Part shown: positions 43,308-64,000 of the stretch, piece by piece
Numbering within the stretch: the stretch's first letter is position 1
How the letters are laid out: each line of letters starts with the position of its first letter
Source: Polyangia bacterium
GTDB lineage: Bacteria > Myxococcota_A > Polyangia > Fen-1088
Reading direction: 5' to 3'
Length of the DNA stretch: 64,000 nt
Assembly (NCBI GenBank): GCA_038257535.1
Contig: JBBSJE010000005.1
Location: 1,383 to 65,382, forward strand
Notes under the pieces: generated by a model
Databases searched by the model: none
Seen by the model: the letters and a program-made list of their open reading frames with translations, nothing else
What the model was told of the DNA's origin: nothing
Program-made: the position numbers and the translations under genes

Positions 43308-43495
43308 GACGTGCTCTCCCCCCGGAATCGTTGTGGCGCATCCGCGCTAGCGAAATGCCGATTCAAGGTATCACGAAGGGCGTAGGTTACGGAGGGGATG
43401 GCCGAGCCTGAAAGGTCGATTTGACCCGGCTTCGGACCTGTGTCCACGGCAAATCGGGGTCGCCAAGCACACAATCAGAGCTATTCTGCGCGGGT

Positions 43496-44305
43496 ATGCT
43501 TTCTCCCGACCGCCGCCGCCGGCTTTTGTCGCTGATCCGTAGCCAGGGTTCCGTCCAGATCACCGGACTTGAAAAGACCTTGGACGTGAGCCGGATGACG
43601 CTTTACCGCGACCTGGAGGCGCTGGTGGCGGAGGGGTTGGTGCAGCGGGTGCACGGCGGCGTGATTGCGCTTGAGGGCGGCGCGGTAGAATTGTTCGTGG
43701 ATCCACGCGCGCACCCGCTGGAGGAGCGAATCACCGTGGCGCGCCTCGAAAAAGAGGCCATCGCCCGGCATTTGGTCACCGTTTTGTCCACAGTGCGAAC
43801 GGCTGTGGTTGATAACAGTTCCACAATTTTCATGCTGTCGCAGGTGCTGCCGGGCAGTCCGCACGAGCTGTTTTTGGTGACAGGAGGGGTCTCGCTTTAC
43901 GTTGAGCTGCAGCGTCGGGCTGTTGAAAACATACGTGTGGCGATACATGGAGGCGAACCTCACCCGCGCACGGGCTCGTTGGTTGGGCCCATGGCGCAAG
44001 GAGGGCTCAACGAGATGCGGTTTGATATGGCCGCCATGTCGTGTTTGGGCGTGGTGCCCGACGAAGACGCGGTGTTCGTTTCGAACGCAGAAGAGGCTGA
44101 GGTCAAGCGCACGTATATGGCGCGCGCCCGGCGCAAGGTGCTGGCCATTGATGGCGGCAAACTTGGCAGGTCGGGTCCCTACCGGTTGTGCAAACTAAGC
44201 GAATTTGACTTGGTGATCACTGAGTCGGGCCCTAAGCCTCCTGCCGCTTTGATTGCGGCCGCAAAACAAGTTCTGCAAAACCCATCCCCCCTTGAGCAGC
44301 CTTAG
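43496..44305 (+). CDS. DeoR-family transcriptional regulator
   Basis: 'RRRRLLSLIRSQGSVQITGLEKTLDVSRMTLYRDLEALVAEGLVQRVHGG' is a DeoR HTH, followed by a DeoR_C-like sensor domain. The start was moved to ATG 43496. Confidence 0.8.
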   Translation: MLSPDRRRRLLSLIRSQGSVQITGLEKTLDVSRMTLYRDLEALVAEGLVQRVHGGVIALEGGAVELFVDPRAHPLEERITVARLEKEAIARHLVTVLSTVRTAVVDNSSTIFMLSQVLPGSPHELFLVTGGVSLYVELQRRAVENIRVAIHGGEPHPRTGSLVGPMAQGGLNEMRFDMAAMSCLGVVPDEDAVFVSNAEEAEVKRTYMARARRKVLAIDGGKLGRSGPYRLCKLSEFDLVITESGPKPPAALIAAAKQVLQNPSPLEQP

Positions 44306-49061: not shown

Positions 49062-49985
49062 TTGAATTTTCACCAGCGCATACATCTGATCACCGGGAAG
49101 GGTGGGGTGGGACGCACCGTCGCCGCCGTGGCCCTGGCCAAGTCCCTCGCACAAGCGGGGCGCCGGGTGCTTTTGGTCGAAACGGGACAGCCCGACGAAG
49201 GTTTTTCGCCCTTGGGGCAATATTTCAAGGGCGTGCGCTTAAGCGACGAGCCGCAGCCGGTGCAAACGCAGCTAGAGGCTTGTCAGCTGTGGGCAAGAAC
49301 GGGGCACGAACTTTTTGCGCGTGCGGTGATTCCCGCGGGGCCATTGGTCACCGCGGCCTTGCGTTCGAAACCTTTGCAGCGGTTCATGCAGGCCGCGCCT
49401 TCATTTTACGAGCTGGGCATTCTTTATCACTTCCTGCATCTGCTTCAGCTCGAAAACAAAGCCGGGCAGGCGCGGTACGACGCGGTGGTGGTGGACATGC
49501 CCGCTACAGGCCACACCTTGGCGCTCACCACGCTGCCTGAGGTGGCGTTGCGGGTGGTGCCGAAGGGGCCGTTGGCCACAGCGATGCGGCGAGGCCAAGG
49601 CTTCATTTACGACGCGCGAATGACGGCGGCCTGGGTTGTGACCTTGCCCGAAACCTTGCCGGTCAGTGAAGCCATTGAACTTGTCGAAGGTTTGCGGCAA
49701 TCAAAAGTGCCGCTGGGTGGAGTGCTTCTGAATCGCTTCTTGCCCGATCCGTTTACGTCCGAAGAGCGCGCGCGGGTGCAAGTGTGGATGGACCAGCACC
49801 GCTTGCGGGGACGATTCGCGTTCGAGCGGATCGTGATGGCGGCCGAATCGGTGCAAAGGCTGTCGGAGGCCACCCACTTACCTTTGCTGCGCCTGCTGGA
49901 GGTCCCGCGCGATCTTGGCGACGCGTGTGAGGGCTTGGCGACACAGTTCACGGCGTTGCGGGCCAACAGCGGAGCGTCGCTATGA
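49062..49985 (+). CDS. ArsA/Get3-family P-loop ATPase-like protein with a degenerate Walker A (GKGGVGRT)
   Basis: 307 aa. 'ITGKGGVGRTVAAVALA' has CGC (Arg) at 49113-49115 where the P-loop Lys is expected. 'DMPATGHTLAL' is an ArsA-type switch II. TTG start. Confidence 0.7.
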   Translation: MNFHQRIHLITGKGGVGRTVAAVALAKSLAQAGRRVLLVETGQPDEGFSPLGQYFKGVRLSDEPQPVQTQLEACQLWARTGHELFARAVIPAGPLVTAALRSKPLQRFMQAAPSFYELGILYHFLHLLQLENKAGQARYDAVVVDMPATGHTLALTTLPEVALRVVPKGPLATAMRRGQGFIYDARMTAAWVVTLPETLPVSEAIELVEGLRQSKVPLGGVLLNRFLPDPFTSEERARVQVWMDQHRLRGRFAFERIVMAAESVQRLSEATHLPLLRLLEVPRDLGDACEGLATQFTALRANSGASL

Positions 49986-51127
49986 GCCGCAGTGTGATCC
50001 CTCCCGCGCCCACAGTGGCCGAACTTGTGGCGAACCGCCGCGTGATCGTGTGCTGTGGCGCCGGAGGCGTTGGCAAAACCACCGTGTCCGCGTCGATTGC
50101 GTTAAGCGCCGCCCGTCAAGGCCGTCGCGTGCTGGCGATCACCGTGGATCCCAGCAAGCGTTTGGCCGAAGCGCTGGGGGTAACCGAACACCAACGTGAA
50201 CCCACCTTGTTGCCGGCTGAGCGACTGCGCGCGGTGGGCGTGAATCCGCCGGGTTCGCTTTCGGCGTGGATGTTGGATCCGCAGCTCGTGTGTGATCGCG
50301 TGGTTGCACAAGTGAGCGAAGATCCCCAAGTGCAAGAGCGGATGCGGCGCAACCGGCTGTATCAAAATGTCAGCACGCTGGTTGCGGGCATGCATGAGTA
50401 CACCGCGGTCGAGGCCTTGCACGAATTCATTCGCGATGACCACTATGATCTGGTGGTGTTGGACACCCCGCCTTCGCGGGATGCCATTCGGTTTTTGGAT
50501 ACACCCGAACGCGCGAATGCGTTTTTGAACCCGCGCATTTTTAGCTTTTTCCTGCCTGGCAACCACGGCTTCTTTCAACGCGCGGGCACGGCGCTGGTGA
50601 ACAAGATTCTGGATTTGGGTTTGGGCAAAGAATCGCGGCTCGAGCTACAGGAGTTCTTGTCGCTGTTTCAGGTGATTTTGCGGCACTTGAATCGCAATCA
50701 AGAAAGCATGCAAAAGTTTTTCGCCAGCAAGGAGGTTTCGTTCTTGTTGGTCACTTCACCCGCACAGGCGGCCGTGGATGAAGCGGCGCACTTCGCTGCC
50801 CGCACGCGCGAGTTGGGCGTACGCATTGGCGGCACCATCTTGAACCAAAGTTTGGCCACCGCGGCGGGATTGCCGTTTCCCGATGCCAGCTTGCTGGTGG
50901 GCGATTCGTCAGAGGTGTCTGCGCAAGCGCTGGAAAAGCTGCGCGCGTTGGCGCATGTGGAAAGCGCCGCGGTGGAACGCGACGCTGCGCTGGCTTCTCA
51001 ATTGGCGCAAAAGTACGCGGGAAAGACGCCGCTGTGGGTGTTGCCCCGGTTTACGCGCGAGCAGAGCGCGTTCGGCGCGCTCACCAAGGTGGCGGACCTG
51101 TTGATGGGCGACGGGGCCGAGTTTTAG
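49982..51127 (+). CDS. ArsA/Get3-family P-loop ATPase (GAGGVGKTT; lacks the signature Lys)
   Basis: 381 aa. 'VCCGAGGVGKTTVSASIA', 'AITVDPSKRLAEALG' and 'VVLDTPPS' are present. ATGA overlap with the upstream paralogue. Confidence 0.75.
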   Translation: MSRSVIPPAPTVAELVANRRVIVCCGAGGVGKTTVSASIALSAARQGRRVLAITVDPSKRLAEALGVTEHQREPTLLPAERLRAVGVNPPGSLSAWMLDPQLVCDRVVAQVSEDPQVQERMRRNRLYQNVSTLVAGMHEYTAVEALHEFIRDDHYDLVVLDTPPSRDAIRFLDTPERANAFLNPRIFSFFLPGNHGFFQRAGTALVNKILDLGLGKESRLELQEFLSLFQVILRHLNRNQESMQKFFASKEVSFLLVTSPAQAAVDEAAHFAARTRELGVRIGGTILNQSLATAAGLPFPDASLLVGDSSEVSAQALEKLRALAHVESAAVERDAALASQLAQKYAGKTPLWVLPRFTREQSAFGALTKVADLLMGDGAEF

Positions 51128-51139
51128 GGGCTGAAGCGT

Positions 51140-51754
51140 TCAGCTTCCCCGGGGAATGCGGGCCGCCCGGTGAAACGCATGCACGGCCGCGCTCACATCA
51201 AAGCGGCGGCCCCAAGCGGCTTTGCCGTGCGAGGATAGAAACGATTCTACGTGGCGTCGGAACTGAAATTGGCTACTCGAAGGCGGACTGGCGCGCAAAG
51301 CCCGCCCCCAAAGGCGAACCGCTGGAAGCGGCAGTAGCTTCTGTCGACGAAACACAGTCACCAGATCCGATATATCGGATTCTATGTACCTTGTGAGCTT
51401 GCCTATGGCCCAATGGGCGGGACTAAGAAGACGCAGATCCAATCGTCCGATCCGGGAGTGTCTGTGTGAACGCTTCTGATAGTCAAGCAGTGTGATCATG
51501 CCCCAGCGATCAATGTCCTCAGCCACACTGGCAGCAATACCCGTTATTCTTGACGACATCACCACACAGGCATGAACCTGGTCCCAGGTGACGCGCGATC
51601 GAGCGGGCAGACGCAGCCCGAAATCAATATCCTGACTTGGACGCACGCCCCCCCACAATGCTGCGGCACAAGCCCCGGTGAGATAAATTGTAGCTGGGGC
51701 CTGTAGCTGGTCCGACAAGACCTCGAAAAAATGCTTAATTTGCTTTGGCTTCAC
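51140..51754 (-). CDS. Minimal nucleotidyltransferase-fold protein (MNT/AbiEii-like candidate toxin)
   Basis: 204 aa. 'IYLTGACAAALWGGVRPSQDIDFGL' fits the G-x(9-14)-D-x-D NTase motif. The GTG start shares GTGA with the XRE gene stop. Confidence 0.5.
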   Translation of the reverse strand: MKPKQIKHFFEVLSDQLQAPATIYLTGACAAALWGGVRPSQDIDFGLRLPARSRVTWDQVHACVVMSSRITGIAASVAEDIDRWGMITLLDYQKRSHRHSRIGRLDLRLLSPAHWAIGKLTRYIESDISDLVTVFRRQKLLPLPAVRLWGRALRASPPSSSQFQFRRHVESFLSSHGKAAWGRRFDVSAAVHAFHRAARIPRGS

Positions 51755-52224
51755 GTTTGACCTGCGTAAGGACTAAGGCGCGACAATAGACTTTCTATGG
51801 TGTCAGCACTCACCATGGCCTTGAGCATTAGGTGTGCGTGCAAAGTCGCCCGGCGGCTTTCAGGCTTTGGCTTGCTGCTGCCATTGATGGCCCTGCGGGA
51901 CACGCTTAGGGTACGCAGGCAGCTGACCAGTTGCTCCCACTTTGGCTCGCGCAAATCCAACGCTGCGGCGCGGGCCACCCGCTCCATCTCGTCGCGCGAC
52001 AGCGACAAAGGCTCACCGAAAGGAGAGCGACCATCCGCAAGTACGCCGGGTGTGACGTTCAGCGCGCAAGCCAGTGCGCGCAGCGTTGGCAGCGTAACTT
52101 CGCGGGTGCCGTTTTCGATCGCGCAGAGGTTGGGACGGGAAATGCCCGCGGAGTTCGCCAAGTCCGCCTGCGTTAGGCCGCGATGAAGGCGCCACAACAA
52201 AACCGTTTCCGCAAAAGGCCACAT
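51751..52224 (-). CDS. XRE-family helix-turn-helix regulator (candidate antitoxin)
   Basis: 157 aa. 'LRLHRGLTQADLANSAGISRPNLCAIENGTREVTLPTLRALACAL' is a classical HTH_XRE. Confidence 0.75.
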   Translation of the reverse strand: MWPFAETVLLWRLHRGLTQADLANSAGISRPNLCAIENGTREVTLPTLRALACALNVTPGVLADGRSPFGEPLSLSRDEMERVARAAALDLREPKWEQLVSCLRTLSVSRRAINGSSKPKPESRRATLHAHLMLKAMVSADTIESLLSRLSPYAGQT

Positions 52225-52276: not shown

Positions 52277-55200
52277 CTAGGGCGTCCCATGGGGAACTCG
52301 CAACGTGTGCGAGGTCCCCAGTAAACGCTTGCCCAATTCCGCCAACCATCGTGATTCCGGGGTGTCAGGCAGTTCAACGATTTCGCCTCGCCCCGCTTTG
52401 AGCAAAAGCTGCAGGGCTTCGCATGGCTCGGGCATCTGCTCAAGCAAGCGATAGATCACAGCGTGTCCAAAACTAGCGCCCGTGGAGTGGGACCATGCTT
52501 GCGCCTGGGCCTGCAGGTCGGGGTCGGGCGCAAACGGCTGTTCGTGGTCGGCGCTGGGACCCAGGTCGTTGATGGCGCGCAACACATGCGTGCGGCGCTC
52601 TCCATAGTTCATGCCGCGCAGCTCGTTGGCAAGCAAGGGCGTGCCGAGGTAGATGGCCTGCTGACCCAGGCCCACAGGAAAGTCGGTGCGCTCTTGCAGG
52701 GGCGCGCGGGGAAGGCCGCCCACCAAGCGCACGGGCACAATGGGGCAATCGACCGAAAGCGCCATGTCGATGAAGGTGCCGCTTAAAGTGCGCACAGGAT
52801 CGGCACAGCTCAGGGCGCGCGTGCCCTCAACGTACACCATCACGCTTCGACGATTGTCGCGCATCTGCTGCGCCATCTCCGCGATGATTCCCGGCAAGGT
52901 GTCGGCGTGGTTGTTGTCAAACACTTGGGCCATCTGTGGACGCTTCAATCCCGGGTAGCTGAAACTGTGTCGCATCAACAGCTCGATCCAATGCTGCTGT
53001 GTTTCGGGCTTGGCCAGCGTTAGCACGGGCGCGTTTACAAACGCGGATGCCACAATCGCAAACAAGGTGGATTCGATTGACGTTTGATGATTGGCCAAAA
53101 ACAAAACGCCGCGGGGCGCGTTCGCCATGGTGCGCTCTGTGGTCTCGCCGGCGATGTGAATGTTGGCCACGAAGCGTGACACCAAGATTGAAAAGATCTG
53201 ATCCACGGGCGGTGGCAGCGTACCCAAGTGGTGACGCCAAAACGCCCGGACTTGAGGCAAAACCTCGACCGCTTCTAGTTTGCGAAGTGCGTTCTGCGCG
53301 GGGATGTCTTCGGACTCTGCCGCCGGTGGCGCGTCGTCCACGATGCGCATGCCCAAGTTGCTGGCATGGTAAATGCGCTTGCCATCCACCCACAAGCTCG
53401 CTTCCGCGATCACCAGCTGCCCTCTGTCGTCCTGGCTGCGGCTTGTGACTTCCAAAGTCGTGGTGATGGTGTGATTGCGGGGCACCACTTGCCCGCGGTA
53501 CTTCCACGTCATTTCGTGGTTCAGCGCCACCGCTTCGAAGCGAGGGGCCCGCATACCCTCATGAAGGCCTTTATGCAGCATTACAAACTGCAGAAGCTGC
53601 AGCATGGCTTCAATGCCCAAGGAGCCAGGTTGCACAGGATCTTGGAAAAAATGTGCTTTGAAGAACCACTCAGCGGGGTTCACAGCTTTTTCGGCGCGTG
53701 CGAAGCCCAAACCCGCATGCCCACCCGCGGGGTCATAGGCCGTGATCCGATCCAGCATCAGCAGCATCGGCCGGGGCATGCGTAAGTGGCCTTGGCAATA
53801 GCGCGCTGGGCGCGAGATGAGATCTACGGAGAATTCCGATGGCGCGGCAAACAGCGCCCGCTGCGCTTCGGGCGTGGGAAGGCCCACCTGATTTTCAAGC
53901 GCCGCTTTGGGGAAGAAGCCAAAGCCGGTTTGCAGGTCGTAAACCAAGGTTTGGCCCATGAAGCACTTCACATCGAAGGTCTGCAGAATCATGCCGCCCG
54001 AACGCGACACCCCGGTGATGGTGGTTCGTGTGCGTAGGCTGCCGGAGCTGGGAAACACCTCCGCGCAAACGCGGCCTGTGCCGTCGAGGTTGCGAAAACA
54101 GAGATCCTCATCGCTCAACAAGGCGCTGCCCACGAAGCTGGCCAACCAGCCACAAGGTTGCAACACAGCCTCAAGCAACACACAAAACGGCATCACCTTT
54201 TGGCCGCTTTCGTCGAAGTACCAAGCCTGCGGGGGCACATCGTATTCGATCTCAATGGTTGCGCCGGGCTTGCATGCCCCCAACTCACCGTCGATGCGCG
54301 TGACACGGCTCATGAAGTGATAGGGCGGACCCGGCAGGCGGGCCACGCGGCGCGTGTCATCAAACACGCGGTACATGGGGCCAAACGCGTCGGAAGGGCG
54401 GCCCCACGCGCAGGCCAACAGCGATGCGTAATCGAAGTGGAAGCCGCCAATCTCAGGCGGCGATGTTTGCGGCGTTGGTGTGGGCGGGGCCGCAATGCTG
54501 GTGAGCGGCCAATCGGGCACCAAGCGCAAGCCCACCCGGCGCGCGTGAAAGGCCTTGAGTCCATCGACGGTTCCCAACAGATCCGCATAGAGCGTGGGGT
54601 AGGGGCCGTCATGCACCTCTTCCACAAACAGTTCACACACAAGCTGTTTGGAGCCAGGCAACACCTGCCCGCGACACTGCAGTTTGTAGCTTTCTTCGGG
54701 AACCGGTTCAAACCGCCAGCCGTCGCGACTGAGCGTATATCCCATGGCCGCGAGGTAAAACGCCATGGCTTGCAAGCAGCCCTCAAACATCAAGGTGCCG
54801 GGCATGCAGGGGTCATTCTTGAAATGCCCTTGGAAGAACCAGTCGGTGGGTGAGATGGCCGTGATGGCCTTGAGGTAACCGCGCTTCCACGGGCCACCTT
54901 GCGGATCTAGCGCCGCTATCTCGTCCACCAACAGCATGCGGCCGGTTTGAATGGCGGGCGATCGCGTGTGGGTTTGCGCCAGCTCAAAGCCTTTGCCAAA
55001 GCACGTATACGAATCGCCCGCTGCAAACGCGCGCACCTGTTCGGGTGAAAAGTTTTGCGTCGTACATGGCACCGCGGGCCGATCAAGCCGTGGCTGGGGC
55101 GTGATGTCTTGATCCTCAGGGGACCACAACACGCCGGCAGAATCGTCCAACTCTTGCTTGCTGAAGAACCCTGCTTGCCCCTGGCGCACGGTGAGCGCCT

Positions 55201-58200
55201 TGCGATCGCCCACGATGCAATCGTAGTGAAAGAAGAACAACCGAACGTCACCCTGGCGCGCGTGGGCGTCGATGGAGATCGCGTAGCGGAGCGTGTCGCC
55301 CGGCTTAGGCAGCGAACCATGGTAGGTGAGCTCACAACCCAACAGGCGATAGGCCCGCTGGCCCCGATTGAACGCGTCGACGCCCAAGTACGAGATTAAG
55401 AACAGATCGGCTTGCCCCGCTTCGATCATAATCCCGGCGGGCATGTAACCGCGGTTGAGGAACCAGCTGTCGGGGCGCACGTCGGTTTCTGTCCACACGG
55501 TGCCTAAGCCCATCGAGCCCGCTTCAGCTTGCAAGCCCACCACGCGATCCGCGAGCAACAGGGGCGGCTCGGGCATGCGGACGACTATGGCGTGTTGGTC
55601 TTGATCCGCGAATGCGGGACCGAAGATTTGGGAGATGGGGCCTGAGGCGTGGACTTCGAGATCTGCGCGGGAGAAGCTGGGGCCCTTCGGGTCTTGCGGC
55701 AACGAAGCCTTTGACACGGCTGGGGCCGCTGGCGTCGCCTGCGGGGCCACCGGTGGCGGTGGCTCTGGGAGCGTCGTTGCCGCTTGGAGGGGCGTGGGGC
55801 CTTTGAGCAAAAGGCTTAAGCCCGCTTGTCGCAAATGCAAGAACCGCGTGTGCAGGGCTGCTTGCGTGGCCACAAAGCCTTGATGCATCTGTGAGAGGTG
55901 CCGGCGGTAAGCGAAGTGCTGCGCGAAACCGGGCAACTGCGTTTCGACAACGGGCGGCGGAGACGCTACTCCCGCCATAGGCGGTGCTGGTTGAGAATGA
56001 CCACCGTGGGTGGTGTGCGCTGTCGCAAGCAGTGAGCTTGTGGCTGATGGCAGCGTGGGCGCCATCGGCATCACTTGTGGTGGCGCTTTCATTGCAACCG
56101 CGACCGGCGTTGTTGTGGCTGTGGGGGCGGGCGCGGCCAGCAGCTGTGGCATGTGCGGCGCCGCCCGGTGGGCAGCGAAGGCCAACACGGGGGTTTGCAA
56201 GCGCTCGCAGCTCGCCCGCAGCTGGGCAAGCCAGCTTGGCATCTCGCTGGCCGTTGGCGCTGCGACGGACGTGGGTTGCGCCGCCGCCACATGAACCCGC
56301 GCGCTTTGTTCGCCCAACGCTGTGATGAAAACCTCAGCGTGGCGATTGCCCTCGGCCGGCCAGGGCAGGGGCGGCGTGGGCGTTTTTACCCGGCCTGAAA
56401 ACGCATGCGCCGGGCCTGGCCGCAGTCCGTACGCACAACACAATCCCGCAGCCGCCACATGCAACAAGCCATTGGCTGCGTGGGCGTGTCCGAACAAAGC
56501 TTGTAGTGAAACGGCCTGGGCTTCGTCGCCCCATCGTAAGCTGTCAGCCGGCGAAGCGTCTTCGTTTGCAAATGCGTCCACCACAAACAGAATCTCGTCG
56601 TTGGCCCCACGCGCGTCTTGCAGGCGTTTGAGCACCAACACCACCGCAGCGTCACCACCCACTTGGCGTTTGGGAGAAAGCACTTTCGCCGCGGCCAGAT
56701 GCACGGGCTCAGCGCACAGATCCACCGCGCCCACCAAAGCGGCATCGATCTCGCCTGCGGCTAGCGCCCGTTGCGCCAGCTGCAGCGCTCGCACGCCCGA
56801 AAGCTCTTCGGCGGCAAGCGTGAAGCTGGGGCCTTGCAGATCCAACTGACTGCTCAAACGATTCGCGACAACGTTGGGCATCGCACCCAAGACGCCGGCT
56901 GCCCCTAACAAGGGAACAAAGCCGTCTCGCGTAGCGGACAGCCAGCCTTCGGGCGCGTGCAAACGTTCGGCCCATTCGGCCGCACGCCACCGCGCCCCGT
57001 GGCGTGCAATTTCCGCATCGCACTGCATGCCCACAAACACCCCGGTGCTTGCGCTTCGAAGATCGTTGACCTTCGCCATCGCTTCGCGCGCCGCCGCCAG
57101 CACCATCAGTTGCTGTGGCAGCGTTTCTTCCAAATCCTTGGGCGGAAACCGCAGCCCTTGCATCGACAGCGCCACTTCGTACGCGCGAGCCGCGCCTTGA
57201 GTCACGCGTGAGTTGCCGGTGAACAGCGCCTCGGCAAAATCGGCCACGTTTTGACCATCCGCCACGCGCGCGCCCATCGCCACCACGGCCACGGGGCCAG
57301 GGGCCGCAGCACGAAAGCTTGCGGGCACAGCGATGGACACAGGCCGCCCTGGGGAGGGTGGCTCTTGCACGATGACGTGCGCGTTGTTGCCGCCAAAGCC
57401 AAACGCGCTGACCGCGGCGATGCGGGGGCCGTGCAGATCAGGCCAGGGTTCAGGCGCATTGAGCGCCCGCAGGCTGGTGTGGTCCAGCGCCGATGAAGGC
57501 TCATCCAATGACGGCGTGGCGGGGCGGATGCCCGCTTCAAAAGCGGACAGCACCTTGAGCAGGCCCGCCGCTCCCGCCGCGGTGATCAAGTGTCCCATGT
57601 TCGCCTTCAGCGACCCGATGGCCAAAGGCTGAGACGCTTCCCCGAAGACTTCGCCCAAAGTGGCGATCTCAACGGCGTCCCCCACGGTGGTGCCGGTGGC
57701 GTGACATTCAACGTAAGAAATCCAAGAGGGGTCGATGCCCGCAGCGTTGTAAGCCGCGCGCAGCGCGCGCACTTGTCCGGTTTGCGTGGGCACCAGCAAT
57801 CCGCGCCCGCGGCCATCGTTGCTAAGCCCAATGCCGCGAATCACGCCCAATATGGGCAAACCATCGGCAAGCGCATCATCAAGCCGTGCCAAGGCCACCA
57901 GCGCGGCGCCTTCGGCGGGCACAAGGCCATCGGCCTGCGCGTGGAAGGGGCGGGTGCGGCCGCTGGGGCTCATGGCGCCCAATGCCGTAAAGCCTGCGTG
58001 GATAAACAAATCGTCGGCGCGATTCACCGCACCGGCCAACATGAGATCGGCGCGGCCGTCAGAAAGGGCATCGCAGGCGTACTTGATGGCGTACAGCGAC
58101 GAAGCGCACGCGGCATCCAAAGCAAAGGCGCCTGCCCCTAATCCCAGCGCTTGCGCTAGAAAGTGGGCGGGCAAGCCCGACATGAAGCGGTTGTGGGGAT

Positions 58201-58705
58201 CGATGTGCGAGACACCAAGTTCTTTCAGCAGCCCGCTGGAGGGCGCCTGAAGGCCCGTCCGAGGATCCCGCTGCCCTTCCAACCAAATGCGCTCGGCAAA
58301 CTGAGACAAGGCTTGCGATGGATAAGACAAATTGCCCACCACGGCGCCCACGCGATCCAAACTGCGGCGGTACTGGGATGCTTGCAACGCCTCGCGCCCC
58401 GTGTGAAACAGCCACTGAAACAAGGGATCCAGCGATTGCACAAACTCAGCGGGTAGGTGAAAGCCATGCGGAACAAACGCCTCCTCAAACCCCGCGACAT
58501 ATCCACCCACGTTGCTGATGGCTTTGTCGCTGGTGTCGTGTTTGTCGTGCGACAACATCAACCCGCTGCGAATGCCCCAACGCTCCGCCGGTGCGGCGCT
58601 GGTGACCACGCGGCCCGCCAGCACCAAGTCCCACAAGGAAGAGGGCGTAAGCGCGCCGGGCAACACACAGGCGCGGCCCACAATGGCGATTGGACAAAAC
58701 GACAT
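52277..58705 (-). CDS. pfa3: PUFA-synthase subunit, Pfa3/PfaC-like: KS - CLF - 2x FabA-type DH - C-terminal PlsC/AGPAT acyltransferase (2142 aa)
   Basis: KS: 'LDAACASSLYA', 'ECHATGT' and 'KANMGHL'. CLF: 'LAAEELSG' in place of the Cys. DH: 'DWFFQGHFKNDPCMPG' and 'EWFFKAHFFQDPVQPG'. Acyltransferase: 'FLANHQTSIES' and 'YVEGTR'. Confidence 0.9.
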   Translation of the reverse strand: MSFCPIAIVGRACVLPGALTPSSLWDLVLAGRVVTSAAPAERWGIRSGLMLSHDKHDTSDKAISNVGGYVAGFEEAFVPHGFHLPAEFVQSLDPLFQWLFHTGREALQASQYRRSLDRVGAVVGNLSYPSQALSQFAERIWLEGQRDPRTGLQAPSSGLLKELGVSHIDPHNRFMSGLPAHFLAQALGLGAGAFALDAACASSLYAIKYACDALSDGRADLMLAGAVNRADDLFIHAGFTALGAMSPSGRTRPFHAQADGLVPAEGAALVALARLDDALADGLPILGVIRGIGLSNDGRGRGLLVPTQTGQVRALRAAYNAAGIDPSWISYVECHATGTTVGDAVEIATLGEVFGEASQPLAIGSLKANMGHLITAAGAAGLLKVLSAFEAGIRPATPSLDEPSSALDHTSLRALNAPEPWPDLHGPRIAAVSAFGFGGNNAHVIVQEPPSPGRPVSIAVPASFRAAAPGPVAVVAMGARVADGQNVADFAEALFTGNSRVTQGAARAYEVALSMQGLRFPPKDLEETLPQQLMVLAAAREAMAKVNDLRSASTGVFVGMQCDAEIARHGARWRAAEWAERLHAPEGWLSATRDGFVPLLGAAGVLGAMPNVVANRLSSQLDLQGPSFTLAAEELSGVRALQLAQRALAAGEIDAALVGAVDLCAEPVHLAAAKVLSPKRQVGGDAAVVLVLKRLQDARGANDEILFVVDAFANEDASPADSLRWGDEAQAVSLQALFGHAHAANGLLHVAAAGLCCAYGLRPGPAHAFSGRVKTPTPPLPWPAEGNRHAEVFITALGEQSARVHVAAAQPTSVAAPTASEMPSWLAQLRASCERLQTPVLAFAAHRAAPHMPQLLAAPAPTATTTPVAVAMKAPPQVMPMAPTLPSATSSLLATAHTTHGGHSQPAPPMAGVASPPPVVETQLPGFAQHFAYRRHLSQMHQGFVATQAALHTRFLHLRQAGLSLLLKGPTPLQAATTLPEPPPPVAPQATPAAPAVSKASLPQDPKGPSFSRADLEVHASGPISQIFGPAFADQDQHAIVVRMPEPPLLLADRVVGLQAEAGSMGLGTVWTETDVRPDSWFLNRGYMPAGIMIEAGQADLFLISYLGVDAFNRGQRAYRLLGCELTYHGSLPKPGDTLRYAISIDAHARQGDVRLFFFHYDCIVGDRKALTVRQGQAGFFSKQELDDSAGVLWSPEDQDITPQPRLDRPAVPCTTQNFSPEQVRAFAAGDSYTCFGKGFELAQTHTRSPAIQTGRMLLVDEIAALDPQGGPWKRGYLKAITAISPTDWFFQGHFKNDPCMPGTLMFEGCLQAMAFYLAAMGYTLSRDGWRFEPVPEESYKLQCRGQVLPGSKQLVCELFVEEVHDGPYPTLYADLLGTVDGLKAFHARRVGLRLVPDWPLTSIAAPPTPTPQTSPPEIGGFHFDYASLLACAWGRPSDAFGPMYRVFDDTRRVARLPGPPYHFMSRVTRIDGELGACKPGATIEIEYDVPPQAWYFDESGQKVMPFCVLLEAVLQPCGWLASFVGSALLSDEDLCFRNLDGTGRVCAEVFPSSGSLRTRTTITGVSRSGGMILQTFDVKCFMGQTLVYDLQTGFGFFPKAALENQVGLPTPEAQRALFAAPSEFSVDLISRPARYCQGHLRMPRPMLLMLDRITAYDPAGGHAGLGFARAEKAVNPAEWFFKAHFFQDPVQPGSLGIEAMLQLLQFVMLHKGLHEGMRAPRFEAVALNHEMTWKYRGQVVPRNHTITTTLEVTSRSQDDRGQLVIAEASLWVDGKRIYHASNLGMRIVDDAPPAAESEDIPAQNALRKLEAVEVLPQVRAFWRHHLGTLPPPVDQIFSILVSRFVANIHIAGETTERTMANAPRGVLFLANHQTSIESTLFAIVASAFVNAPVLTLAKPETQQHWIELLMRHSFSYPGLKRPQMAQVFDNNHADTLPGIIAEMAQQMRDNRRSVMVYVEGTRALSCADPVRTLSGTFIDMALSVDCPIVPVRLVGGLPRAPLQERTDFPVGLGQQAIYLGTPLLANELRGMNYGERRTHVLRAINDLGPSADHEQPFAPDPDLQAQAQAWSHSTGASFGHAVIYRLLEQMPEPCEALQLLLKAGRGEIVELPDTPESRWLAELGKRLLGTSHTLRVPHGTP

Positions 58706-58718
58706 AGGTAAAGTGGCC

Positions 58719-61040
58719 TTAAGTTATCAGGGCTGGGGGGGCGGTCGGCTCCGCCGCAGCAATCACATGTGTTTCCACACCTCGCAGCTCCATCACCAGC
58801 GTGCCGGTGGCGTCAAGGAACGCCACATCCGCCACGCAGCGGGCGCCGCGGCCTTCGCGCGCGTGCAACACCGCACGCAAGCGGCCTTGCGCAGGGCCAG
58901 GAGCGTACACGCACAACGCTTCTAGGCCTGTGGGCAACGAGACACCGCCCAAGCTCTCATGCGTCCACAACAGCGCCAGCTGCAAGGCCGCATCAACCAG
59001 CGCCGCATCGATGTGCCAGCTGGCATGCTCAAGCGGAAACGCCGCTGGCCATTGTTTGTCGTGCACCCCCACAACGGTGGCAACAAGGCCGTTGGCGCCT
59101 TTGCCATCAAGCGATTGCAGCATATGAAAACTGGGTCCGTGAAACAGCGGCGCTTGGCCGTAGATCTCCCGCTGGTGCGGGGCCAGATCCGTGGGTAGCG
59201 CCGCCATGTGATCGGGCGTGTGGGCGTGGTCGCGGAGGTCGCAGGTGGCGGCATACAGCTTTGCGCCATCGCTGGCCAAGAGCTCAAGCGACACGCTGGT
59301 TTGCCCACCGTTTGAAAGCTGCCGTACGACAACGCTGACCCGCTCGGCGTGGCCTTGGTCGAACCTTGGCAAGCGCAGCCCCCGAAGCACCTTTACGTTT
59401 CGCAGCGCCCAAACCTGCAAGTTAGGTTTGAACGCCATCGCCGTTCGCGCAAACCATTCCAGCACCAAGGCCATGGGCACGACAGGCACGCCTTTGATGC
59501 GATGGCCATCAAGGTAGCCGTGCGTTTGCGGCCCCACCAGCAATTCGCAGGCAAATGTGCGACCACTTTCCGGCCCCGCCAAGCCGTGACCTGAAACGTC
59601 GTTGCCTAAGATCACTTCAGGGTTTCGGGTGACGCTTGTGCATTCGTCACAGAAGGCTTGAGCCCCGGCACCTACGTTGATAAGTCCCACGCCCATCGCT
59701 GCAAAACGAGCGCGCAAGCCATCGTCCACCATGCCGCCATCCCAAGGTCCCCAACCCAACGCGCGCACGATGGCATTGCCGCCGCGCCGGTTTTGTTCAA
59801 ACGCGGCCACTTTGTTCAGCACCTCATTGGCCATGGCGTAATCGCATTGGCCCAAGTTGCCGGATCGCGCGGCCACCGACGAAAACAACAACAGCAGTCG
59901 CAGCGGATCAGCTTGCGTGGCCGCCAGCAGGGCGCGCAACCCGGCCACCTTTGTGGCCATCACGCGCGCAAATTGCGCATCGGTTTTGGCGGCGATCAAC
60001 TTGTCGGCCAGCACACCCGCGCCATGCACCACAGCTGTGACGGGACCCCAATGCAAACGCCGTTCGGCCACGGCGTCCCGCACGGCTTCATTGTTGGTGG
60101 CATCCACGACGGCGTAGTGAACTTCACTGCCGGTTGCGTGTAGCTGGTTAATGTTGGCGTTAATTTCACGCACCGCCAAGATTTGGTTCGCTTGCCGGCC
60201 AATGCTGGCCAGATCAATGTTTTGGCCCGCTTGTTTGGCGGCGAGCGCAAGCGCGCGCTTGAGGTCCGTTTCAGTCTTTGCTTGCGCACACGCGTCCGGC
60301 TCGTGCTGCAACGGTGTACGGCCCAAAAGCAGAATGCGTGCAGGCGCAGTGTGCGCCAGTTGTAGCAAGCAGGCGGCGGTGACTCCACGTGCGCCACCGG
60401 TGGCAACCACGAAGGCCACATCATCTCTATTGAGAGGCCGCGTTGCCTCGGCGGCAAACGGCGCAGATTCCAGAGCAACACGCACGCGACCGGCCGTGGG
60501 CGAAAGGCCCACCTCGCGTTCAGGGGCGCCCCACAACAGTTCGTGCGCCAGCGCCTCGGCCATCTGTTCAGAAGAGCGTGCGCCCCAGGGCAGATCGATG
60601 GCGCGAACACATGCCTGTGGCCATTCAACCGCTGCTGTGCGCACCAACGCTGCGGGGCCCGCCGCCCACGCGCGGGGCGATCCCGAAAGCCCAAAATCGC
60701 CGCCCGTGTCTTGCACCGTGATGAAGGTGCCGCCTTCAGCCGCAAAACGTGTGGCCACCGCGCGCGCCACGGCAAACACGTTGAAGTTGATCTGTTCAGC
60801 TTGGGCGGCCGACGCCCCCACGTCGCTTGACAATGGGGACAAGCCTTCAAGACAGATCACAGCTTGGGCCATGTGAGCGTGCTGGTCGATCAGCCCCACC
60901 ACAACGTGGGCGCCTTGTTGCCGAAGCCTTTTTGCCAGCGCGTCGGCCACGCCGGCGTTGTCGTTGGTGATCACCACCAGGCCGCCACCCAAAAGTCCTG
61001 GCGTGGCCAATCCCCGAGCAGGCGAGGGCACCGCGCGCAC
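58719..61040 (-). CDS. pfa2: PUFA-synthase KR - PKS-type DH module (the C-terminal half of a Pfa2/PfaA-type protein, here a separate ORF)
   Basis: KR: 'VVATGGARGVTAA' and 'SSVAARSGNLGQCDYAMAN'. DH: 'HGYLDGHRIKGVPVVP'. GTG start with no obvious SD. Confidence 0.85.
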   Translation of the reverse strand: MRAVPSPARGLATPGLLGGGLVVITNDNAGVADALAKRLRQQGAHVVVGLIDQHAHMAQAVICLEGLSPLSSDVGASAAQAEQINFNVFAVARAVATRFAAEGGTFITVQDTGGDFGLSGSPRAWAAGPAALVRTAAVEWPQACVRAIDLPWGARSSEQMAEALAHELLWGAPEREVGLSPTAGRVRVALESAPFAAEATRPLNRDDVAFVVATGGARGVTAACLLQLAHTAPARILLLGRTPLQHEPDACAQAKTETDLKRALALAAKQAGQNIDLASIGRQANQILAVREINANINQLHATGSEVHYAVVDATNNEAVRDAVAERRLHWGPVTAVVHGAGVLADKLIAAKTDAQFARVMATKVAGLRALLAATQADPLRLLLLFSSVAARSGNLGQCDYAMANEVLNKVAAFEQNRRGGNAIVRALGWGPWDGGMVDDGLRARFAAMGVGLINVGAGAQAFCDECTSVTRNPEVILGNDVSGHGLAGPESGRTFACELLVGPQTHGYLDGHRIKGVPVVPMALVLEWFARTAMAFKPNLQVWALRNVKVLRGLRLPRFDQGHAERVSVVVRQLSNGGQTSVSLELLASDGAKLYAATCDLRDHAHTPDHMAALPTDLAPHQREIYGQAPLFHGPSFHMLQSLDGKGANGLVATVVGVHDKQWPAAFPLEHASWHIDAALVDAALQLALLWTHESLGGVSLPTGLEALCVYAPGPAQGRLRAVLHAREGRGARCVADVAFLDATGTLVMELRGVETHVIAAAEPTAPPALIT

Positions 61041-61069
61041 AGCCCAGCGGGCCAGCGGTGCGCCAGCGC

Positions 61070-64000
61070 TTACGGGGCCTTCTGTGCTAAAGGGCGGGGG
61101 GCGCCCTCCGTGGCACCGTTCGAGGTCGCTTGGTGCGCGCCGTTGCTGCCAGCGCCGGTGGCGCCAAGTCCACCTTCTTGCCCCAGATGGTTCACGATTT
61201 CACGCAAGGTGCGCATCGACGCCAGTTTGGCCGTGTTCACGTCGGGCAGGCCGGGTGCACGTTCCATGACGGCCGACAAGATCTCCACGCGTTTGATGGA
61301 GTCCACGCCGAGATCCGCTTCCAGGTCCATGTCCAAGCCCAGCATCTCTTCGGGGTAACCCGTGCGTGCGGCCACCACGTTCAACATCAACGCCTGCAAA
61401 CCATCCAGCGTCAACGACGCCGTTGCCGGTTGGGTATGCCCGTTGCCGTTCGATGCCGAAGTGGCCTGGGCGGGCGCGGCCTGCGGCGGTGGTGCCGCGG
61501 CAAATGAAGGTGCTGGCTGGGCGGGCGCAAGCGATGGCGCCGCTGAATAAACCGGCGGTTGCGGCACAGGTGCTGCGGCTGGTGCATACGTGGGTGCTGG
61601 CGGGGCCGCTGCGTACACCGGTGCGGGTGGCGCAGGCGGCATGAACGCGGGTGGTGCATATAGAGCTGTTGGCGCCGGCACATACTGAGCGATAGGCGGC
61701 GCAGCGAACGCGTGATACGCAGGTGCCGCATACGCCTGCCCCCCCAGCGCATGCGTAAGCCCCATCAAAGACGACTCAGCGGCGCGCAAAAACGCCGTGT
61801 GAGACTCTGCCATGGCCCTTTGAAACGCGGCGTGCGCTTCAGCGGTTTGGCGTTGGCTTTCCGAGATGGCCATCACCCATGCGTATTGCACTTGTGGATC
61901 CATTCCCGCGCTCACGGGCGCTTGAGTGGGCGCAGGGGCAACGGGCGCAGGCGCAACGGGCGCAGGGGCAACGGTGGGCTGTTCAGGATTGGGCTTAGGC
62001 AAAGCGGCGGCTCCTCCGGGTGGCGGATAAGGCTTTCCGTAGCCGGCGCCGTTGACCTTCAACGTGAGCGCGGGCTTGGTTTTCAAACGTGGATCGGCAG
62101 GCACCGCGAACGGCACCCACAAAGCTGCAAAATCAAGTGACACCCCTGCGGCAGCCAACGCCCCCAACCCTTGCCACAACATAGCCACACCGGATCGGCC
62201 CTTGCGATTGAGCGCAATTGCACGGTGAGGCTTGTCTTTCAAAATGTGGCCCACCAACGCCGTGAGAACATGCCCCGGCCCCACCTCAACGAAGGTGCGC
62301 ACGCCTTGCGCGTACATGGCTTCGATTTGTTCAACGAAGCGTACGGAACTTGCGAGCTGATCAGCCAGCAGGGTCCGCATCGCTTCGGGCTCGTTGGGGT
62401 AGGGCGCGGCGGTGGCGTTTGCGTAAACAGGACAAGCCGCAGGTGAAAAGGTGATCGACCCCAACGCTTGCGAGAACGGCACCCGTGCCGCGCTGACGAC
62501 GGGCGAATGAAAGGCGGTGGCCACGTCCAACCGTGTGGCGGAAACGCCTTGCGAGGAAAGCTGGGTTTCAAGTTCGGTGATGGCTTGCGTTTGCCCCGAC
62601 ACCACGACCTGTCGGGGGCTGTTGTGGTTGGCCACCACCACAGCGGCTTCGGGGCCCTGATGCCCAGCCGTCTGCAAGTGCGCTTGCACCTCGGCAAGCG
62701 GTGCCGCCACAGACAGCATCGCGCCCGGTGCTTGCGCGGCCTGAGCCATCACCTGGCCGCGTTGACGGGCGGCTGCAACGAAGTCGGCTTCGCTCAGCAC
62801 CCCCGCGGCAAACAGCGCCGTCACTTCGCCAAAACTGTGCCCTGCCACCGCAGTAGGCATTAGCCCCAACGTGCGCAGCACATTCAAGTACGCCCAACTG
62901 GTCACGCCAAGGGCAGGCTGCGCCCATTGCGTGGCCAACAGGCGTTCGCGTTGCGCTTGTGTTTGCGTTTCATCGAAGGCCGGCCGCGGAAACACCACGC
63001 GATCCAACCGCTCATCGCAGGTCGACGGTGTGTTCAGTTCGCGTTCAAGCGATGCGGCCGCGTCCCAAGCTTGTTGTGCGGGCGCAAACGCCATCACCAC
63101 GTCGGCCGCCATGTTCAGATATTGGCTGCCTTGACCGGGAAACAAAAACGCCACGTCGCCAGCTGCCTGCCCCATGGCAAATTCAAGGCCACCAGGAACG
63201 CTTACGCTGCGCTCTTGCCGTGCCACCGTTGCGGCTTGAGCGAGCTTGCTTTGCAGCTCGCTCAAGTTGGTCGCGAACACGGCCAAGCGCGCGCTGGGAT
63301 TCGGCTCGAAGTTCGTTTGTGAGTCGTGCGCCCAGAAGGCCAGCAACGCATGCTGCGCTTCGGGGTCAGGCGTATGGCTTGCAAACTCACGCGCTTGCGA
63401 AGCCAGTTCGTCGCATCGAGCGGCCACCGCTTGGCCTGAACCGCCTGCAAGCAACAGCAAGTGGCCGTCAGGTGGCAGATCGCGCGCGGCCAATTGTGCA
63501 GGCCCTTGATACTCTTCAAGCGCAACGTGAAAGTTTGAACCGCCAAAGCCAAATGAACTCACAGCCGCGCGGCGGGGATGATCATTGCCGCGCACCCAGG
63601 GGCGGGCAACGGTATTCAAATAGAAAGGGGTGCTGTCGATCTGCAGTTTGGGATCGGGCTTCTGCACCTTGATCGTGGGCGGCAGCACTTTGTGGTGCAG
63701 CGCCATCACCGCCTTGAACAAACCGGCAGCGCCTGCGGCCGCCTTGGTATGCCCCACCTGCGATTTGACCGAACCCAAGGCACACCAACCGGTGTCGGTG
63801 CTGCCCGATTCTTCAAACACCATGCGCAGCCCGCCAAATTCGGCAGCGTCGCCGGCTTTGGTGCCCGTGCCGTGGGCTTCCATCAATTCAATGGTGTGAG
63901 CGCCAAACCCCGCTTGTTCATAAGCTCGCCGCAAGGCCACCGCTTGGCCTGCCGACACGGGGGCGTATACGCTTTTGGATCGCCCATCCGACGAACTGCC
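61070..64000 (-). CDS. pfa2: PUFA-synthase KS (partial) - MAT - Pro/Ala-rich linker - single ACP (N-terminal part of Pfa2/PfaA; 5' end outside the window)
   Basis: The frame stays open to the window edge ('GSSSDGRSKSVYAPVSAGQA...'). KS: 'EAHGTGT' and 'KSQVGHT'. MAT: 'FPGQGSQY' and 'GHSFGE'. There is one ACP, 'LGVDSIKRVEI' (Ser codon at about 61298-61300). Confidence 0.9.
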   Translation of the reverse strand, partial: GSSSDGRSKSVYAPVSAGQAVALRRAYEQAGFGAHTIELMEAHGTGTKAGDAAEFGGLRMVFEESGSTDTGWCALGSVKSQVGHTKAAAGAAGLFKAVMALHHKVLPPTIKVQKPDPKLQIDSTPFYLNTVARPWVRGNDHPRRAAVSSFGFGGSNFHVALEEYQGPAQLAARDLPPDGHLLLLAGGSGQAVAARCDELASQAREFASHTPDPEAQHALLAFWAHDSQTNFEPNPSARLAVFATNLSELQSKLAQAATVARQERSVSVPGGLEFAMGQAAGDVAFLFPGQGSQYLNMAADVVMAFAPAQQAWDAAASLERELNTPSTCDERLDRVVFPRPAFDETQTQAQRERLLATQWAQPALGVTSWAYLNVLRTLGLMPTAVAGHSFGEVTALFAAGVLSEADFVAAARQRGQVMAQAAQAPGAMLSVAAPLAEVQAHLQTAGHQGPEAAVVVANHNSPRQVVVSGQTQAITELETQLSSQGVSATRLDVATAFHSPVVSAARVPFSQALGSITFSPAACPVYANATAAPYPNEPEAMRTLLADQLASSVRFVEQIEAMYAQGVRTFVEVGPGHVLTALVGHILKDKPHRAIALNRKGRSGVAMLWQGLGALAAAGVSLDFAALWVPFAVPADPRLKTKPALTLKVNGAGYGKPYPPPGGAAALPKPNPEQPTVAPAPVAPAPVAPAPTQAPVSAGMDPQVQYAWVMAISESQRQTAEAHAAFQRAMAESHTAFLRAAESSLMGLTHALGGQAYAAPAYHAFAAPPIAQYVPAPTALYAPPAFMPPAPPAPVYAAAPPAPTYAPAAAPVPQPPVYSAAPSLAPAQPAPSFAAAPPPQAAPAQATSASNGNGHTQPATASLTLDGLQALMLNVVAARTGYPEEMLGLDMDLEADLGVDSIKRVEILSAVMERAPGLPDVNTAKLASMRTLREIVNHLGQEGGLGATGAGSNGAHQATSNGATEGAPRPLAQKAP
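61928..61972 (-). repeat. Three tandem 15-bp units encoding (PVAPA)3 in the MAT-ACP linker
   Basis: The plus strand reads gggcgcaggggcaac / gggcgcaggcgcaac / gggcgcaggggcaac. Confidence 0.9.

Follow-up and report, generated by a model that had tools for sequence, protein, structure and literature searches.

In dimers of the intradimeric (deviant) Walker A class of ATPases, the P-loop xKGGxxGK[ST] holds two lysines, and the signature lysine of one protomer acts in trans. In ArsA and Get3 this intradimeric lysine has been located about 3 Å from the β-γ bridging oxygen of the partner's ATP (PMC12415280; PMC10248533), and a 2025 study of ArsA has named functional asymmetry within the class as an open question, calling ArsA its only known pseudodimeric member (PMC12415280). 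BagAB is a widespread two-subunit bacterial ATPase whose structure has been solved, the deposition being titled [quoted passage not shown] (PDB 6BS3). Here we analyze two overlapping genes, P1 and P2, in a stretch of 64,000 nucleotides, which we call the window, from a Polyangia bacterium (GenBank assembly GCA_038257535.1, contig JBBSJE010000005.1, positions 1,383 to 65,382 of the forward strand), where they lie between olefin (ole) genes and genes of the polyunsaturated fatty acid (PUFA) synthase type (pfa). Their products are related to BagA and BagB. Of the two ATP sites that these would form together, one alone is probably able to fire, as judged from the P-loops.

Identity of the two subunits and their P-loops

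The Pfam family ArsA_ATPase matches both proteins, and in NCBIfam P1 scores highest with BagA (92 bits) and P2 with BagB (198 bits, nearly full length). Among solved structures the closest are 6bs3_A for P1 (E=1.3e-19) and 6bs3_B for P2 (E=4.9e-48, residues 17-374), and AlphaFold2 single-chain models built from alignments, with predicted local distance difference test (pLDDT) values of 88.8 for P1 and 82.1 for P2, returned the same two chains as top Foldseek matches, followed by archaeal and eukaryotic Get3/TRC40. Reciprocal best similarity between gene 1 and BagA and between gene 2 and BagB holds by sequence and by fold. By these comparisons P1 and P2 are assigned as the predicted A and B subunits of a distant BagAB-type pair, relatives of BagA/BagB (Rv3679/Rv3680), and the paired ArsA-like complex of mycobacteria that a first-pass annotation of this DNA had mentioned proved to be their direct homologue, with 6BS3 as the top match. 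The fold and the remaining motifs of both proteins fit the intradimeric Walker A class in the Mrp/MinD branch of SIMIBI; the class P-loop with both lysines is found in neither, each protomer carrying one lysine of the two. The NCBIfam model "KGGVGR-motif variant AAA ATPase" (NF047398) was rejected for P1, since it covers only residues 5-39 and scores 35 bits against a cut-off of 90, and a literature search for the KGGVGR motif gave nothing relevant.

P1, whose N-terminus reads MNFHQRIHLITGKGGVGRT, departs from the full deviant Walker A motif GKGGxGK[ST] in that the signature lysine is present (Lys13) and the catalytic lysine is replaced by arginine (Arg18); BagA of M. tuberculosis reads GKGGTGKS. 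The same arginine is common among relatives: of the 120 homologues nearest to P1, 108 carry GKGGVGR[TS] and five have lysine. An unbiased sample was drawn from 401 genomes of the phylum by taking the 49 closest orthologues according to homology and not to pattern, of which 42 carry arginine and seven lysine, and in a library of representatives at 50% identity arginine was found in 42 of 76 clusters at E<=1e-30. A tree of 136 A subunits sets a Myxococcota-type subfamily (59 rows; Shimodaira-Hasegawa approximate likelihood-ratio test, SH-aLRT, 100) apart from a BagA-like remainder. Within the subfamily one group unites 49 arginine forms and a single lysine form, nine of the ten lysine forms, including that of Myxococcus xanthus, falling outside it, and four more cases of arginine are isolated elsewhere in the tree. 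Judged by this distribution, the change from lysine to arginine in A arose near the base of the Myxococcota subfamily and is an old trait of the clade.

The surroundings of the arginine are strictly kept. The arginine clade retains G12, K13, G14, G15, V16, G17, T/S19, D145, P147, A148, T149, G150, E203, and N224, H151 is nearly invariant (48 of 49 in the arginine clade and at least 90% in a broader homologue alignment), and a column-by-column comparison found the A pocket of this clade as conserved as that of the lysine forms. Across loci the arginine is encoded by CGC (29), CGG (12), CGA (8), and CGT (2). Decay or pseudogenization of site A was rejected, because the pocket is conserved and the arginine codon turns over synonymously; an arginine kept through four synonymous codons within an invariant pocket argues for selected asymmetry rather than decay. 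By its conservation, the nucleotide pocket of A is under full constraint with arginine in place.

P2, which contains VIVCCGAGGVGKTTV, keeps the cis Lys-Thr pair and lacks the signature lysine, in agreement with the B-subunit pattern G[ASP]GGVGKTT. All 120 closest homologues of P2 carry GAGGVGKT as well as T[IV]DPS[RK]RL and LDTPPS, BagB of M. tuberculosis aligns with an identical GAGGVGKTT, and G[SAPT]GGVGKT is the almost invariable motif of the B partner over 80 loci that span Myxococcota, Actinomycetota, Gammaproteobacteria, Binatia, and further groups. Given that the signature lysine is missing in B across the family, its absence defines the B subunit and is not new. The first-pass annotation had read the two P-loops correctly, GKGGVGRT with its CGC arginine codon in P1 and GAGGVGKTT with alanine in P2, at coordinates that were all confirmed (Table 1), and had taken them for complementary defects. 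In that form the interpretation is not supported, as neither is special to this locus: the loss in B is family-wide, M. tuberculosis included, and the arginine in A is a conserved trait of a clade. "Defect" is the wrong term for a conserved, selected state, and the P1 site looks like a built-in ATP trap.

Invariant in B in all groups are K32, T33, T34, T54, D56, P57, R60, D161-P164, R166, and N288, with R60 and R166 invariant or nearly so, and L61 of switch I is invariant too. Residue 58 of P2 (50153-50155) differs with the type of the partner. Beside arginine-type A subunits it is serine in 50 of 51 cases; beside lysine-type A subunits it is alanine in 54 of 59, which gives the DPA also seen in Get3. 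This covariation of Ser58 with Arg18 may reflect co-adaptation of the subunits, though the independent events are very few, about two for and one against (locus L031 has DPS and L057 DPA, both with arginine).

Coupling of the two genes and the proposed mechanism

Each of the 49 sampled orthologues is followed immediately by a B gene, whose product has Ala, Ser, Thr, or Gly in place of the signature lysine. The stop codon of A and the start codon of B overlap by 4 nucleotides in 80 of 114 loci and by 1 nucleotide in 16 more (96/114, 84%), and the present pair has the layout of BagAB: adjacent genes on the same strand, A then B, and coupled. Moreover, natural fusions exist. The predicted protein P0253 (710 amino acids) matches P1 over residues 8-306 with 41% identity and GKGGVGRT, and its P2 part, residues 336-704, shows 47% identity and GAGGVGKTT; about nine further representatives, predicted proteins of 647-742 amino acids, contain two P-loop motifs, mostly in the order A then B. 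The single chains with two motifs are P0253, P0279, P0308, P0309, P0317, P0327, P0341, P0378, P0384, and locus L072, in which the in-frame fusion of A and B was checked on the DNA. In M. tuberculosis, the homologues crystallize as A together with B, according to the title of 6BS3. Universal adjacency, overlaps, natural fusions, and this co-crystal argue for an obligate unit of A and B, and the heterodimer that the first-pass annotation predicted is in this way supported, by inference, as obligate.

We consider it reasonably probable that P1 and P2 form a BagAB-type heterodimer in which site B is the sole hydrolytic site and site A is a natural ATP trap. The overlapping genes would provide P1 and P2 in a 1:1 ratio, and the two proteins would close into a heterodimer of the ATP-sandwich kind, in which two composite sites hold nucleotide. 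Site B, at the P-loop of P2, would bring together Lys32 and Thr33 in cis, Asp56, Asp161, and, in trans, Lys13 of P1; as had been proposed from the P-loops at first pass, it would be the only complete composite site, with the full canonical set of residues, and the only one to hydrolyze. Site A, at the P-loop of P1, would have Arg18 for the catalytic lysine and would receive no signature lysine from P2, which has Ala27 there. Given the strict conservation of the rest of the P1 pocket, site A most likely still binds ATP; it would do so without turnover and keep the dimer competent, and hydrolysis at site B would be the single timer. A precedent is found in laboratory variants: in the ParA protein known as P1 ParA, K122R leaves ATP binding, dimer formation, and binding of DNA and ParB intact and abolishes hydrolysis, and McdA K15R behaves alike (PMC8684754). 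The motifs, homology, conservation, coupling, and fusions were seen here; which site fires, as well as any role of the pair in the cell, we infer.

The locus and its link to ole and pfa genes

The features of the locus are collected in Table 1. The ATGA overlap, the start of P1 54 bp past oleD (whose end is at 49007), and the position between ole and pfa had been stated in the first-pass annotation and were confirmed on the sequence. P1 and P2 are separate open reading frames (ORFs) in different frames. In public gene calls, P1 (P0001, 292 amino acids, MGRTVAAV...) starts at the GTG of Val16, inside the P-loop, and is deprived of its first 15 residues and so of half of the P-loop; the homologues P0008 and P0105 are truncated in the same manner. 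TTG at 49062 is the earliest start codon of the frame and the N-termini of homologues agree with it (MxFxxRIxLITGKGGVGRT), and we take this TTG, rather than the public GTG, as the real start of P1. Some gene callers cut the A subunit within its P-loop.

Table 1. Features of the P1-P2 locus, with positions counted along the window
Feature	Coordinates	Strand	Remarks
P1, BagA-like (A) subunit	49062..49985	+	TTG start, 307 amino acids; from ORF list and raw sequence
P1 P-loop GKGGVGRT (G12-T19)	49095..49118	+	Arg18 is CGC at 49113-49115
P1 Walker B / switch II DMPATGHT (D145-T152)	49494..49517	+	resembles DTAPTGHT of Get3/ArsA
ATGA overlap of P1 stop and P2 start (translational coupling)	49982..49985	+	raw sequence
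P2, BagB-like (B) subunit	49982..51127	+	ATG start, 381 amino acids; full cis catalytic set, signature Lys absent
P2 P-loop GAGGVGKTT (G26-T34)	50057..50083	+	Ala27 is GCC at 50060-50062; cis Lys32
P2 switch I TVDPSKRL (T54-L61)	50141..50164	+	Asp56 at the catalytic-Asp position of Get3/ArsA
P2 Walker B / switch II DTPPSR (D161-R166)	50462..50479	+	TGH absent; Arg166 conserved
oleA, oleB, oleC, oleD, directly upstream of P1	44253..49007	+	same strand as the pair
Two-gene islet between P2 and pfa	51140..52224	-	XRE-type helix-turn-helix protein and a 204-amino-acid protein without NCBIfam match
PUFA-synthase-type (pfa) genes, converging on the pair	52277..63958	-	PfaA-type NCBIfam matches

The ole assignment is based on NCBIfam matches of 668 bits to olefin beta-lactone synthetase for OleC and 402 bits to 2-alkyl-3-oxoalkanoate reductase for OleD, and OleA passes the cut-off of a FabH-like model. 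A terminator scan detected no terminator-like site in the 54-bp gap between oleD and P1. The order oleD, a gap of less than 100 bp, A, B, and a converging pfa gene is common to the window, locus L005 (77% identical), and L088, and L090 and L085 have the gene order of the window; in L006 and L007 the order is pfa, oleABCD, about 900 bp, A, and B, and in L009 it is A, B, about 2 kb, and oleABC. Adjacency to ole is thus seen in about 9 of 60 close loci, distributed over three subclades of the A tree. In a genome of several Mb, the pair and ole would fall within a few kb of each other by chance at a rate of about one in several hundred per genome, and the occurrence in three subclades and in three arrangements, compared to this low rate, argues that it is not accidental. 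By these counts the ole linkage is real but a minority state.

Beyond ole, BLAST clustering of the flanking ORFs revealed no neighbour that recurs past single subclades, and a Pfam scan of the 101 immediate neighbours revealed no family in more than four of them; both negatives are limited in sensitivity, as the gene caller is noisy on high-GC sequence and some antisense ORFs were picked. The neighbours specific to subclades are a small protein that by eye resembles an exonuclease, a thioredoxin-like protein, and a third that by eye looks diiron-like. Because ole adjacency is a minority state and no other neighbour recurs beyond single subclades, the pair is best described, on gene order, as a self-contained module with a presumably general role, which some lineages have recruited to or placed beside the olefin cluster.

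Several features of the neighbourhood deserve separate mention. The two-gene islet is absent in the otherwise collinear L005, in which the pfa gene starts about 20 bp past P2. Directly upstream of oleA, a DeoR-family regulator (43421-44305, forward strand) has its best match, 109 bits and below the cut-off, to repressors of the GlpR type, which control the glycerol regulon; the mycobacterial BagAB phenotype is glycerol toxicity, and in that light we find a GlpR-like regulator curious. The pairs of L085 (genome G345), L086 (G338), and L090 (G358) are nearly identical, with branch lengths of 0.004-0.025 for L085/L086, and lie on short contigs in genomes of different families, while congeners of the three hosts carry only a distant type of the pair. 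This pattern points to recent transfer of a block of ole plus pair, or to bin contamination.

The genome contains further relatives of both proteins. A second A-like gene (contig C161, 37-705, reverse strand) has GKGGVGRTT and a BagA score of 113 bits, and it runs off the end of its contig. On contig C37 (3758-4861, reverse strand; locus L001, 1453-2700) lies a B-like orphan with GPGGVGKTT. The genome therefore holds at least two genes of either subunit type. The orphan B-like gene adjoins a putative PP2C-type phosphatase, as read by eye. Contig C167 carries, at about 874-1062 on the reverse strand, a P1-like remnant of 63 codons that is 62% identical to the N-terminus of P1; precisely where the arginine would stand it has a stop codon (GKGGVG*T), and similarity ends after about 63 residues. 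This remnant is either what is left of a pseudogene or part of a foreign contig.

Alternative readings and comparison with known systems

A number of observations weigh against a BagAB-type pair with a single hydrolytic site. Equivalog cut-offs of NCBIfam are not reached, P1 scoring 92 against 400 bits (NF053622) and P2 198 against 521 bits (NF053621), so that the two proteins belong to a distant subfamily and are no equivalogs of the mycobacterial proteins, and the orphan A-like and B-like genes in the same genome indicate that an adjacent partner is not needed by every family member. Arginine is tolerated by some P-loop enzymes, and M. tuberculosis reportedly requires intact ATP-binding motifs in BagA and BagB alike, from which it would follow that site A matters in lysine-type relatives. 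The conserved Arg60 and Arg166 of P2 are candidate surrogates in trans. McdA also lacks the canonical signature lysine, and Lys151 from another helix substitutes for it (PMC6582323), so that a missing canonical signature lysine is no proof of a missing trans residue. It could accordingly be argued that both sites are catalytic, with Arg18 serving in cis while P2 supplies, from elsewhere than its P-loop, a residue such as Arg166 or Arg60 that replaces the signature lysine in trans. Such a two-site enzyme, which we regard as unlikely, would agree with the surrogate lysine that McdA takes from elsewhere in its fold (PMC6582323), with the invariance or near-invariance of both arginines in all groups of B, with the lack of any relaxation of the A pocket, and with the split of B residue 58 into serine and alanine according to A type, which hints at mutual adjustment of the subunits. 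However, the change from lysine to arginine at the same position leaves those ParA-type relatives in which it was tested unable to hydrolyze ATP (PMC8684754), Arg60 and Arg166 are equally conserved beside lysine-type A subunits and hence are no specific compensation for Arg18, and the covariation at residue 58 comes down to the few events counted above. We judge it far less credible, indeed very improbable, that the two proteins are homodimers or find partners encoded elsewhere, adjacency then meaning co-regulation only. Intradimeric Walker A ATPases are mostly homodimers (PMC12415280), orphans of both types are present in this genome (C161 and C37), and A-like genes without a nearby B occur in Polyangia, but a dimer of A with A would have two sites with arginine in cis and a dimer of B with B two sites without signature lysine, neither being complete, and the adjacent B in 49 of 49 orthologues, the 84% of overlapping junctions, the natural A-B fusions, and the crystallization of A with B in M. 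tuberculosis all favour the heterodimer.

To a function as arsenite-pump ATPase (ArsA) we assign next to no probability. The Pfam match of both proteins and public names of homologues such as "arsenic transporter" and "arsenite-transporting ATPase" would suggest it, but with the ArsA equivalog, whose cut-off is 650 bits, they score no more than 57-58, the genes are two separate ORFs in place of a single chain of fused domains, and Cys113 of ArsA aligns with Ala112 of P1. Past switch II of P1, in the region of Cys172, no cysteine was read, P1 and P2 having five cysteines in all by eye; both acr3 genes lie on other contigs (C63 and C158), no arsB was found in the genome, and the neighbours are ole and pfa. 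An arsenic pump was rejected on the low ArsA score, the alanine at the Cys113 position, and the lack of ars context, and public names of the kind "arsenic transporter" are wrong for these genes. A further proposal is that the pair is a dedicated accessory of Ole/Pfa within the ole operon, either a chaperone for hydrophobic intermediates or products or a factor for assembly or localization of Ole, which we hold to be unlikely. The same strand, the 54-bp gap past oleD with no terminator-like site, the presence of oleABCD beside the pair in three subclades and three arrangements, and the rank of ole as the commonest recurrent neighbour are in its favour. An OleC-like gene (E<=1e-90) was found in 158 of the phylum's 401 genomes. 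Of the 42 arginine-type genomes 30 have one, against 126 of 351 others, a hand comparison inflated by kinship between the genomes and in which the independent transitions between lysine and arginine are few. On the contrary, genomes with both the pair and an OleC-like gene have them adjacent in three cases and mostly on separate stretches otherwise, the remaining 12 of the 42 arginine-type genomes show no OleC-like gene, and no Pfam family exceeds four of the 101 immediate neighbours. Outside this phylum, ole clusters are to our knowledge functional with no BagAB-type pair beside them, which counts against this proposal as well.

Placement behind oleABCD nevertheless suggests that, in some lineages, the work of the pair is linked to very hydrophobic lipid products or to their enzymes. 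The hydrophobic clients put forward by the first-pass annotation are a conjecture, for which the gene context offers modest support. One could go further and see in the arginine-type pair a one-stroke ATPase, its A subunit permanently locked with ATP, that handles Ole/Pfa in the ole-linked lineages; it would escort the 2-alkyl-3-hydroxy acid, the beta-lactone, or the olefin, or organize OleBCD at the membrane. Enzymes of fatty acid synthase II (FAS-II) and of mycolic acid synthesis make the same 2-alkyl-3-hydroxy acid motif, and mycobacterial BagA is said to contact them. We think this reading decidedly unlikely; if true, it would give the BagAB family its first concrete biochemical job. In any case, recurrent ole adjacency in an independent lineage is a hint that BagAB-type pairs act near lipid metabolism.

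Returning to the heterodimer with one hydrolytic site, three things are new here: an ATP-trap arginine that occurs naturally throughout a clade of A subunits, natural single-chain fusions of A with B, and repeated adjacency to ole. Asymmetry is inherent to the whole BagAB family, and a large Myxococcota clade adds to it a textbook ATP-trap change in A. For functional asymmetry in the intradimeric Walker A class, the arginine-type pair thereby offers a natural experiment. Provided that the gene models are correct, the natural fusions also mean that ArsA is probably not the sole pseudodimeric member of the class.

The closest described system is BagA/BagB of M. tuberculosis (PDB 6BS3/6BS4/6BS5), which shares with the present pair adjacent genes on the same strand with A followed by a longer B, the Get3/ArsA fold, the signature lysine in A, and, in B, GAGGVGKTT together with DPxKRL in switch I and DTPPSR in switch II. 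The two pairs differ in that identity in the fold alignments is only 26% (A) and 29% (B), M. tuberculosis BagA has the catalytic lysine in its GKGGTGKS where P1 has arginine, switch II of A reads DMPATGHT in P1 against DAPPTGR in M. tuberculosis BagA, P2 has DPS in switch I where M. tuberculosis BagB has DPA, and the present pair resides in Myxococcota, between ole and pfa. Get3/TRC40 has the same fold, with query-normalized template-modelling (TM) scores, over many Get3 and TRC40 chains, of 0.58-0.70 for P1 and 0.47-0.58 for P2, and the same logic of an ATP-driven open and closed dimer. In contrast to Get3, a symmetric homodimer with GKGGVGKT twice and a CxxC zinc site, the motifs of P1 and P2 are unlike and incomplete, and no CxxC was seen in P1 or P2 when the sequences were read by eye. 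We know of no GET partners in bacteria.

ArsA (PDB 1F48, 9NBL) resembles the pair in having two homologous domains in one asymmetric nucleotide sandwich with sites unequal in hydrolysis (PMC12415280) and in the DTAPTGHT-like switch II of P1, and the fused P0253 and L072 have an ArsA-like pseudodimer layout, whereas ArsA itself has both lysines in both halves, a three-cysteine metalloid site, a single chain, and ArsD and ArsB as partners. McdA, like P2, is a natural member without the canonical signature lysine, with Ser/Thr in that place (PMC6582323), yet it is a homodimer with a surrogate Lys151 from another helix (PMC6582323). P1 ParA K122R and McdA K15R bear the same substitution as Arg18 of P1, at the same Walker A position and in the same superfamily (PMC8684754); these are deleterious laboratory changes in homodimers, whereas the arginine of P1 is an old and conserved natural feature that only one of the two subunits of a heterodimer carries.

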